Origin: Sarea resinae
Lineage: Eukaryota
Reading direction: 5' to 3'
NCBI GenBank assembly: GCA_026026165.1
Contig: JAPEUD010000011.1
Coordinates: forward strand, 372,001-436,000
Length of the DNA stretch: 64,000 nucleotides
The notes below the pieces were generated by a model. The model saw nothing but the letters and a program-made list of their open reading frames with translations. It ran no database searches and had not been told where the DNA came from. The position numbers and the translations under genes were made by a program. This document shows, in pieces, positions 21,647 to 23,739 of this stretch. Position 1 is the first letter of the stretch; the number at the start of each line of letters is the position of its first letter.

Positions 21647-22252
21647 TCACCATCTTCGTCATCATGGCCCCTTGATAGGGTGGCGTCTCGTGTGGGCAAT
21701 GACGGTCATGGTCATTCATCGATCAATCATCACAGCATCAACAAGAAATGGCAGACCCGAGAACATCGACTAAACGTCTGCCAAACCTATGCTTCGGAAG
21801 GTCGACAGCCGAAATCGAATAACGAAACAGTGGAATGGTTGGCTTGATATAGGGGGTGGAATGGGTTTGATACCGTTGATAGTCTGTACAGTTCGAGAGG
21901 CGGAGAGGAGAAGGAAGAGGATCCTAAGGCGCGGACCTATGCCGAATCAACAGCCATGGCCGTAGTAGTGAGTAAATCAGTAGCTACAGTAGTGTCATCT
22001 TCTAATTGTCTGTGTGCCCTTGAGTCTCAGTTTCAGTGCCTTTGGGGAGGCCGTCACGCCAGAGCGCCTAGGGAAGTTATGCTCTCGAAGCTCACTAGAG
22101 TCATTCATTTGATAGGTCCATAGCACCATGCTGTCACGTAGGGACCAATTCAGGTTGAGGACGATCGTTGTTTCATTGGCATCGTACAAAGTCATGTCTT
22201 AATCATTTTAATGTGCCCATCTCCATGCTGTCGTGATCGAGCCAATCATATC

Positions 22253-23472
22253 TCACAGCTTTGCCACCTTGTCCGCCTCCTCACTTTGCGCCTGTCAGCA
22301 ACTGTCAAATGTTCCGCGTCCAAGGTTGAGCTGTGTAGAACAAAGGGGGAACGGTGGGAGAGAAACTTACATCCAAGTCCGCAATCTTCAACACGGCCTT
22401 GCCAAAGTTCTTGCCCTGCAGCAAACCCAGCAGTCCCTCGACCGAGTTGTCGATGCCGTCCGTCACGGAGATCTTGGCCTTGAAGGACCCGTCGTGAAGC
22501 CATTTTTGTACGTTCTTTTGGTGCTCGGCGCTGTATTTGGGACCAAAGTTCTCGTCGAAGACAATGAAGCCCTGGAATCGGATTCGTTTTGCGACGATCA
22601 GCATGACGTTCTTGACTCCGTAGCCTTCCGAGGGCTTGAGGTTGTACTGGGAGATCATGCCGCAAGCGACTAGAGACAGGATTAGCCGATATGATGGAGC
22701 TGGTATTCCTCAAAGACATACCGATTCGTCCAAAGTTGTTCATGGCCTCAATTGCGGCATCCAGATGTTCACCGCCCACGTTTTCGAAATAGATATCGAT
22801 ACCTTGCGGGGCAAGGCGCTTCAAGGCGTCTCTCGGCTTTTCCTTTTTGTAGTTGAATCCGGCATCGAAGTTGAGCTCCTTGGTGATGAATTCTAGTTTT
22901 TTATCGTCGCCGACGCTTCCGATGACCTTCAAGCCCTCATGCTTGGCCAATTGTCCGACGAGCTGACCCACGGCTCCAGAAGCGGCGGAGATGAAGATGG
23001 TCTCGCCCTTCTTGGGTTGGCCGATCTCGTAGAAGGACGAGTACGCGGTCAGACCGGGCATCCCCAGAGCGCCGAGGAAGAACTTCGGATCGAGCTTGTA
23101 GGGGTTGTCCAGCTTCGTGAACGTGGCTGCCGTCTGTCCATCGATGACCGAGTACTCCTCGGTTGCGAACTGGCCGAGCACCACATCTCCCTCGTTGAAT
23201 TTGGAGTTGTCCGACTTGAGGACCTTGGCCACGCCACCGTTCGGGATGGGCTTTCCGAGCTCAAATGGGGGGGTGTACGACGGGGTGTTGGGGGCCCTCA
23301 TGCGGCCTCGCTGGTAAGGGTCGAATGAAAGGTACAAGTTCTTGGTGACGAGGCCATCCTTGGGCGGTTGCGTGTTCAAGTCGAAAGGACGGTCCTCGAC
23401 CGTCAGGTCCTTGCCGGCCACGGGGAAGCCTGATGGCACGGACTTGAAGATGAGACCTTTGTTCTGCACCAT
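22253..23472 (-). CDS. NADP-dependent enone/alkenal reductase (MDR, prostaglandin reductase-like), 2 introns
   Basis: MVQNKGLIF start; YLSFDPYQRGRM, LGALGMPGLTAY, ISAASGAVGQ, DIYFENVGG, GRIVACGMISQY, GKNFGKAV; introns at 22670-22721 and starting at 22370. Confidence 0.92.
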
Positions 23473-23739
23473 GATGACCGTTGCGTGGTGACTGCGGATG
23501 TATTCAGAATCTAGACACTGGGCAGCTAGTCGTATGTACGGGGAGGGGGGAGGGGGGAAGTGAGGGCTGTTTGCAAGAATGTGACGGTTGGATTCCAAGG
23601 TTGATATCGACGGGCTATGGGCAGGCAACCTTTTAAAGTACAAACAAAGCCCCGCCGCATTCCTCCACACCTTTCAGAGCCCGTCTGCTCGCCATGTTTT
23701 TCCTCCTGATGGCGGGCGGGAGAACGAGAAAGCGTTCCC

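Follow-up and report, generated by a model that had tools for sequence, protein, structure and literature searches.

A conserved hidden peroxisomal targeting signal behind a stop-adjacent terminal intron in a predicted fungal alkenal reductase gene

Results

A reductase gene whose last intron ends at its stop codon

The sequence studied here is a stretch of 64,000 nucleotides from Sarea resinae (NCBI GenBank assembly GCA_026026165.1, contig JAPEUD010000011.1, positions 372,001 to 436,000 of the forward strand), called the window below and numbered from its first letter. Its minus strand carries a gene for a predicted alkenal reductase that has two coding exons and a terminal intron, and the proximal acceptor of this intron is followed immediately by the stop codon (Table 1). 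Behind that acceptor, in another frame, lies a hidden open reading frame (ORF) ending in AKL, a canonical peroxisomal targeting signal of type 1 (PTS1), and orthologues from two further lineages that share this architecture carry a signal of the same type in the corresponding position. We consider it probable that the gene yields a short cytosolic major form through the proximal AG and a minor AKL-ended form, imported by PEX5, through a GAG four nucleotides downstream (+4), a CAG eight nucleotides upstream (-8), or both.

Judged by sequence comparison, the gene product is a 2-alkenal/double-bond reductase of the MDR superfamily (LTB4 12-HD / PTGR1 / AER subfamily), with NADPH-dependent C=C reduction of 2-alkenals and enones as its predicted activity. 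The exon 1 product matches Pfam ADH_N_2 (PF16884; 9.6e-21, 74 bits against a cutoff of 31) and ADH_zinc_N, the Rossmann domain (PF00107; 1.9e-14, 54 bits against a cutoff of 31.8). Among solved structures, the whole product matches 6eow (2e-87), the 2-alkenal reductase-like 6ysb (3.9e-82), 2-alkenal reductase P1 of Arabidopsis (2j3h; 1.1e-81 over residues 3-347) and PTGR1 (1v3t; 1.6e-55). These matches together span about residues 2-347. Because structural homology stops near residue 347, the fold should end at about ..KIA, and any tail past ..ADLD would be an appendage.

Table 1. Features of the reductase gene in the window (a slash marks a splice junction or joint)
Feature	Position	Strand	Details and basis
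Gene start, ATG	23472	-	minus-strand reductase gene
Coding exon 1	22722..23472	-	250 codons plus 1 base; boundary confirmed by the RNA-contig joint 22669/22722
Intron 1, 52 nt	22670..22721	-	GTATGT .. CTAAT .. TAG; exactly absent from the 1303-nt contig of a relative
Coding exon 2	22371..22669	-	ends ..NFGKAVLKIADLD, phase 0; translation
Terminal intron via proximal AAG, 87 nt	22284..22370	-	GTAAGT donor 22370-22365; donor and stop-at-junction product in the relative's mRNA
Branch-like motifs	TTGAC 22308-22304; CTGAC 22298-22294	-	sequence
Upstream CAG acceptor (-8)	22292..22294	-	79-nt intron; 12-residue extension AQSEEADKVAKL, stop 22255-22253; predicted 362 aa
Proximal AAG acceptor and immediate TGA	22281..22286	-	AAG 22286-22284, TGA 22283-22281; short form ..ADLD, 350 aa
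Distal GAG acceptor (+4)	22280..22282	-	91-nt intron; EADKVAKL would be added; predicted 358 aa
Hidden ORF behind the +4 acceptor, EADKVAKL plus TGA (22255-22253)	22253..22279	-	AKL codons 22264-22256
3' untranslated region, minimum extent of alignment with the relative's contig	22167..22252	-	RNA contig

Candidate acceptors and their frames

Exon 2 closes on the residues ..KIADLD and is followed by the GTAAGT donor in phase 0. This is where the initial annotation of the window, which proposed that the last intron partitions the reductase between cytosol and peroxisome, had opened that intron. The sequence also bears out its account of the acceptors, namely an AAG directly before TGA that would give ..ADLD and a stop, a CAG that would add AQSEEADKVAKL to ADLD before a stop, and a GAG 4 nt past the AAG that, like the next two AGs, lies in the AKL frame. 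The +4 GAG overlaps the TGA, and its use would remove the stop codon together with the intron. The next GAG and the AAG at 22270-22268 would give the tails ADKVAKL and VAKL. AKL followed by a stop is thus the C-terminus of the products of the -8, +4, +7 and +16 acceptors alike, and it fits the [SAC][KRH][LM] type of PTS1.

CTGAC is the stronger of the two branch-like motifs and TTGAC the weaker. From the A of CTGAC it is 11 nt to the AAG of the window and only 3 nt to the G of the -8 CAG, which is 13 nt past the A of TTGAC. Use of the -8 CAG would therefore need the weaker motif.

Retention of the terminal intron as a route to a PTS1 in the window is ruled out, since read-through gives VSFSPTVPPLFYTAQPWTRNI and then a stop, with no PTS1. 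In-frame continuation past the TGA is ruled out as well; it reads GGGQGGKAVRYDW.. (GGGQGG..), again with no PTS1. Readthrough of the UGA, the means by which fungal PGK or GAPDH expose such a signal, is described as a common mechanism for cryptic PTS1 in the parts of PMC4207609 and PMC9549241 that deal with it. Here, however, the AKL stands in a different frame from the one readthrough would open, and the context is TGA GG rather than the TGA CT treated in that part of PMC4207609, so that we assign this explanation a next to negligible probability.

The stop-at-junction mRNA of a close relative

Contigs assembled from one metatranscriptome run (X1, share 0.18) were compared with positions 21900-23700 at 85% likeness, and 22 of them matched. 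One of these, 1303 nt long with a depth of 60, spans the gene; at ~93-94% identity it comes from a relative. In addition to omitting the 52 nt of intron 1, at 22670-22721, exactly, this contig joins 22371 to ten letters and then resumes at 22267. The ten letters start with TGA on the coding strand, i.e., GAT is followed directly by TGA, with the stop codon at the splice junction. The ORF of the relative (P0002) encodes 350 residues at 93% identity and ends in KIADLD. The terminal intron and the donor named in the initial annotation are therefore real in a close relative, in which splicing of the AAG type, directly before the TGA, produces the abundant mRNA. The hidden ORF of the relative carries a 6-nt in-frame deletion compared with the window and retains TGAG, VAKL and the stop. 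None of the 22 matching contigs runs over the terminal intron or covers any other junction, although contigs cannot exclude minor isoforms.

The same arrangement in orthologous loci

Metagenome contigs were scanned with P0002, which left 80 loci. The 3' ends were compared among the fungal-type matches, leaving out about 40 of the 80 that look bacterial (40-48% identity). In five of the loci, which represent three lineages, a donor in phase 0 occupies the homologous position, and TGA comes immediately after the first usable AG. Loci L032 and L034 (74% identity, nearest to lichen-fungus proteins) combine a GTGAGT donor, CTGAC and CAG/TGAG, and their +4 frame reads VGNGKARL and a stop. L003 and L004 (66% identity, Pleosporales-like) have GTGAGT, CTAAC and TAG/TGAG, with a +4 frame of NLKESKI and a stop. 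The fifth, L021 (62% identity, lichen-like), has GTAGGT, CTAAT and TAG/TGAT, with neither a +4 AG nor a PTS1. The proximal AG stands 9 nt after the branch A in L032, L003 and L021, and an intron occupies the place of intron 1 in L032, L034 and L026.

An AG/TGAG junction with a PTS1-like end in the +4 frame is thus found in 3 of 4 lineages whose DNA was seen, the window lineage included, and the AG/TGAG arrangement is likewise present in the mRNA of the relative. The orthologue comparison proposed in the initial annotation accordingly came out in favor of a conserved terminal intron with a hidden PTS1, which is ARL in L032/L034 and SKI in L003/L004, in the same +4 frame. TGA is followed by G in the relative and in each of the three lineages that have a hidden PTS1, and by T in the single lineage that lacks it. 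Lineages also differ in the codon that precedes the stop (GAT, AAG, TCG), and apart from TGAG the hidden ORFs of the window, L032/L034 and L003/L004 have no nucleotides that can be aligned. In a FastTree of 147 rows, computed with the tails removed, the window sequence, P0002 and L032 fall in a starred 33-row lichen-like clade and L003 in a starred 48-row Pleosporales-like clade. This separation indicates that the stop-adjacent layout is old and has been maintained.

The -8 CAG has no counterpart in L032 or L003. The initial annotation had put this site first as the switch, a ranking that is not supported, given its absence from two other lineages and its position 3 nt from the best branch A. 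It had given the +4 GAG a secondary place. That this GAG lies in the AKL frame stands, but the AG/TGAG tandem is precisely what the lineages have in common, and the +4 GAG is therefore probably the selected switch, rather than the -8 CAG. From these comparisons it is likely that the conserved switch is the +4 site, to which the -8 CAG may add in the window species.

How often such endings arise by chance was estimated from stop codons in general. Over all six frames the window has 3633 stops, of which 10 are preceded by [SA][KR]L and 25 by [SAC][KRH][LMI]; in 11 fungal loci the latter pattern precedes 36 of 3650. At p = 0.01, the chance that two of three further lineages have a PTS1-like end is about 3e-4 by our own arithmetic. 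Since independent orthologues carry this hidden signal in one and the same frame, against a background of under 1% per stop, conservation of the hidden PTS1 among orthologues that share the architecture goes far beyond chance.

This result has to be set against the simplest explanation, in which only the proximal acceptor is used, there is a single product without dual targeting, and the AKL ORF is 3' untranslated sequence that arose by chance or is the decaying relic of an ancestral PTS1. The RNA contig of the relative shows the short form only, and many orthologues end exactly here without a PTS1. Moreover, the 3' untranslated region of the relative is conserved like coding sequence (5 differences in 101 bases over 22167-22267, against 18 in 299 for the coding stretch), so the AKL that it shares with the window proves little. 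However, PTS1-like ends in the same +4 frame behind AG/TGAG in both L032/L034 and L003/L004, despite hidden ORFs that cannot be aligned, would be expected by chance in only some 3 in 10,000 cases at the background given above, and a relic would not survive divergence at the level of classes. We therefore judge a single product to be unlikely.

Conservation of the hidden ORF would fit a +1 ribosomal frameshift just as well as it fits splicing. An antizyme-like shift at the UGA of the normally spliced mRNA would open the same ORF, since in each of the three lineages the +4 acceptor and a +1 shift on the spliced mRNA lead into one frame. Against such a shift, the codons before the stop (GAT, AAG and TCG) differ, and there is thus no shared shift site. 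Frameshifting would also need neither a G after the TGA nor an intron at this spot, yet the G tracks the PTS1, being present in 3/3 lineages with the signal and 0/1 without. Frameshifting is thus very improbable as the source of an AKL-ended product.

Three further loci differ in the placement of the stop. In L026 (positions 1818-1930) the last coding residues, ..EPLEQ, are succeeded by TGA TCG and a GTAAGC donor. A second, weaker donor (GTGATC) is found 7 nt upstream, which places the stop between two candidate donors. Joining the upstream donor to a CGACAG acceptor keeps the frame and ends in ..GVSKM and a stop, which could be an alternative-donor version of PTS1 exposure or could be chance. 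In L066 (516-570) and L071 (1088-1130) the stop and one G (GAT TGA G) stand ahead of a GTGAGT donor rather than behind the acceptor, which looks like a 4-nt slide of the intron; in the transcript-like L071 contig, GAC TGA G is followed by other sequence.

Public gene models

A 362-residue NCBI model labelled as metagenome-assembled Sarea resinae (P0234), which belongs to the 90% cluster of P0002, is letter for letter the window product obtained via the -8 CAG acceptor. It is an automatic ab initio prediction and the sole protein record with the AKL form. If this model were right, the -8 CAG could be the main acceptor in the window species and nearly all of the protein would end in AKL, making the enzyme constitutively peroxisomal. 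CAG is a better acceptor than AAG, and the TTGAC motif 13 nt upstream could serve it. Nevertheless, P0234 represents automatic annotation of a metagenome-assembled genome, not RNA evidence, and the abundant mRNA of a relative 93-94% identical to the window uses the site right before the TGA. In addition, the -8 CAG is 3 nt past the A of CTGAC, as against 9 nt (L032, L003, L021) and 11 nt (the window AAG) for the proximal AG. A constitutively peroxisomal enzyme is for these reasons quite unlikely, and the deposited 362-residue model probably does not represent the major product. Gene predictors may avoid a terminal exon made of a stop codon alone.

Automatic models for this family are inconsistent, with versions of 350, 355, 356 and 362 residues for the same gene. 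In the Botrytis/Monilinia cluster (P0313-P0326), the models of one gene comprise 350 residues (..ADFE), 355 residues (..ADFEVSFVH, a read-through of the donor) and 376 or 389 residues, which shows that annotation pipelines treat the stop-adjacent intron inconsistently. A protein search weighted toward the AKL tail turned up no other protein with an extension like it; the public model lies inside the cluster of P0002.

Constitutive signals and donor read-through tails among orthologous proteins

A constitutive [SAC][KRH][LMI] C-terminus is found in 20 of the 147 tree rows. Fourteen of these belong to a Capnodiales-like clade that includes models labelled Hortaea, Ramularia and Friedmanniomyces and end in ..LEVSKL or ..LEIAKL; five, mostly with SRL or SKL tails, belong to a Helotiales-like clade. 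Four Dothideomycete proteins (P0217, P0137, P0165, P0123) end in ..EISKLQ, ..EVSKPQ or ..EISKIEQ beside sisters ending in ..SKL, and at these ends one or two additional residues seem to have masked or eroded a PTS1.

The Helotiales-like, Botrytis and Parmeliaceae forms are known here from protein records. In the Helotiales-like proteins, the residues past the exon end are V and then S, G or R, corresponding to a translated GTNAGY, GTNGGN or GTNAGA donor, and the tails run for 6-9 codons to S[KR]L or PKL and a stop (P0246, P0289-P0300, P0211/P0303, P0240/P0307, P0261/P0308, P0212/P0310). A canonical PTS1 terminates 16 of 50 distinct donor read-through tails, or 23 of 50 when position -3 may also be P or T. 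Moreover, both a long form and a short one, ending ..PE or ..AE, occur within single 90% clusters. The Cadophora cluster, for example, contains 356-residue proteins ending ..PEVS[SGH]SKL, from genomic contigs and NCBI models, versus 350-residue proteins ending ..PE, from contigs of 1.2-2.3 kb. Four further clusters are split in the same manner, with one pair on contigs of 1336 and 1282 nt. Such pairs within one cluster suggest that retention of the terminal intron exposes the PTS1 in Helotiales-like orthologues, and the protein sequences suggest the same stop-adjacent intron with its PTS1 in the retention frame.

The retention frame has no PTS1 in Botrytis, where the two shorter forms differ by the tail ..VSFVH, or in Parmeliaceae, where a 352-residue form (..EEMK) is found alongside a read-through beginning VS... 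Look-ups of lichen and Didymellaceae clusters returned short and donor read-through forms and no PTS1-bearing isoform. Among the representatives, in a database clustered at 90%, one near-identical protein pair has different tails (Candelina).

Outside the gene, short tandem repeats lie upstream of it between 23770 and 24200 of the window. On the minus strand they read as repeated GCTACT units around 23790-23750, as CCACCGTGT in about four copies around 24000-23965, and as CCCTGTG-like units in a row around 24200-24150.

Discussion

Starting from what is observed, namely the intron, its donor and the use of the proximal acceptor in a close relative, together with a hidden signal conserved between lineages, we infer that the distal or upstream acceptor is also used, that the resulting protein is imported, and that the enzyme has a peroxisomal role. 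Splicing at the first usable AG after CTGAC would join ..ADLD to the TGA and give a 350-residue enzyme with no targeting signal. A minority of splicing events would use an AG in the other frame, most likely the +4 GAG of the AG/TGAG junction, which would add EADKVAKL. In the window species, the -8 CAG may also serve through the weaker TTGAC motif, adding AQSEEADKVAKL. Any product ending in AKL would then be imported into peroxisomes by PEX5, and one gene would supply the reductase to both cytosol and peroxisome, where NADPH-dependent removal of reactive 2-alkenals is the suggested role. Of the partition put forward in the initial annotation, what stands is a reasonable inference from a conserved hidden PTS1 and from PTS1 endings that are common in the orthogroup; an AKL-producing acceptor is not seen in the RNA contigs.

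Several points weigh against this interpretation. In none of the 22 matching contigs is the donor joined to the +4 GAG or the -8 CAG, although contigs drop rare variants. GAG is generally the least-used 3' splice site, and the share of the AKL form may thus be very small. The device is patchy, given that L021 and the Botrytis and Parmeliaceae relatives have the intron-plus-stop layout without a visible PTS1. The +4 hypothesis itself arose after L032 had been seen, and the SKI of L003 was admitted only after the last position of the pattern was widened to include I. Finally, the hidden frame is also the +1 frame of the spliced mRNA, and its conservation alone is no proof of splicing.

A broader proposal, which we offer tentatively and would not yet call probable, is that an ancient stop-adjacent intron present in Sareomycetes, Lecanoromycetes, Leotiomycetes and Pleosporales-like Dothideomycetes works as an evolvable switch for targeting, with three modes of PTS1 use, the share of mis-spliced or unspliced mRNA setting the peroxisomal dose. 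In the first mode, the +4 tandem acceptor would splice the stop away (window, L032, L003). In the second, a retained intron would supply 6-9 first codons of the form V-S-x-S-[KR]-L and a stop, as in Cadophora, Rhynchosporium and other Helotiales. In the third, the device would have been lost and replaced by a constitutive SKL or AKL. The mis-spliced or unspliced share would be small, possibly regulated by stress or carbon source, and the enzyme would detoxify alkenals derived from lipid peroxidation.

If dual targeting is correct, an NADPH-dependent alkenal/enone reductase joins the short list of cytosolic enzymes that are partly sent to fungal peroxisomes, which would suggest that peroxisomes detoxify reactive aldehydes or carry out another C=C reduction. 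The gene would also be a conserved, non-yeast case of two acceptors in tandem, 4 nt apart, with the second splice site made by the stop codon itself. A practical consequence concerns annotation. Inconsistent models hide or misstate the major product, and proteome-wide PTS1 predictions therefore miss or overcall the reductase in these fungi.

Our search of the open-access full-text literature returned nothing on members of the alkenal-reductase family in peroxisomes, and nothing on a tandem acceptor in combination with a peroxisomal targeting signal. The closest known system is MDH2 of Yarrowia lipolytica (YALI0E14190g). As described in the part of Kabran et al. 2012 (PMC3372373) that treats this gene, the terminal intron has two 3' splice sites 4 nt apart, of which the upstream site gives ..PAN and the downstream site gives ..AKI, an accepted yeast PTS1. 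The same part of that paper documents both isoforms by cDNA clones, RNA-seq (1181 versus 648 reads) and eYFP localisation. The likeness to the reductase gene is close: the acceptors of a terminal intron are 4 nt apart, the upstream one yields no signal and the downstream one leads to a PTS1 (AKI there, and AKL, ARL or SKI here), and one gene serves cytosol and peroxisome, although in the reductase gene use of the distal site is a deduction. Unlike the reductase, MDH2 encodes an NAD-malate dehydrogenase rather than an MDR alkenal reductase. In Yarrowia both frames run on for a few codons, whereas the proximal site of the reductase lands on a stop and TGAG forms the distal AG. The layout of the reductase gene, in contrast to that of MDH2, is conserved across classes of Pezizomycotina.

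Cryptic PTS1s exposed by alternative splicing are also known on GAPDH of Ustilago maydis and PGK of Aspergillus nidulans, as summarized in parts of two reviews (PMC3798809, PMC9549241). In these cases, as proposed for the reductase, a minor form arising by alternative splicing provides a cytosolic enzyme with a C-terminal PTS1, and the distribution among fungi is patchy. The enzymes are different ones, and the comparison is drawn through reviews, at a level that does not include splice sites. Freitag and colleagues reportedly described, in Nature in 2012 (485:522), how fungal glycolytic enzymes acquire cryptic PTS1s through alternative splicing, work that we know through such reviews.

Readthrough at UGA CU offers a third parallel. 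The relevant part of Stiebler et al. 2014 (PMC4207609) describes PTS1s uncovered in this way, including that of Art1, an NADH-dependent aldehyde reductase. There, too, the hidden PTS1 lies just past the annotated stop, and a small share of the protein goes to peroxisomes. Unlike those genes, the reductase has its PTS1 out of frame behind TGA GG, and a change of frame by splicing or frameshifting would be required. Within the enzyme's own family, the plant and animal 2-alkenal/double-bond reductases and PTGR1 (2j3h, 6ysb, 4hfj, 1v3t, 2y05) show full-length similarity and the same Pfam architecture. In contrast to the predicted AKL forms, whose tail of 8-12 residues would lie beyond the aligned region, these solved reductases end where the fold ends. 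The kind of mechanism proposed here has thus already been described for other enzymes, to which an alkenal reductase would add a further case.

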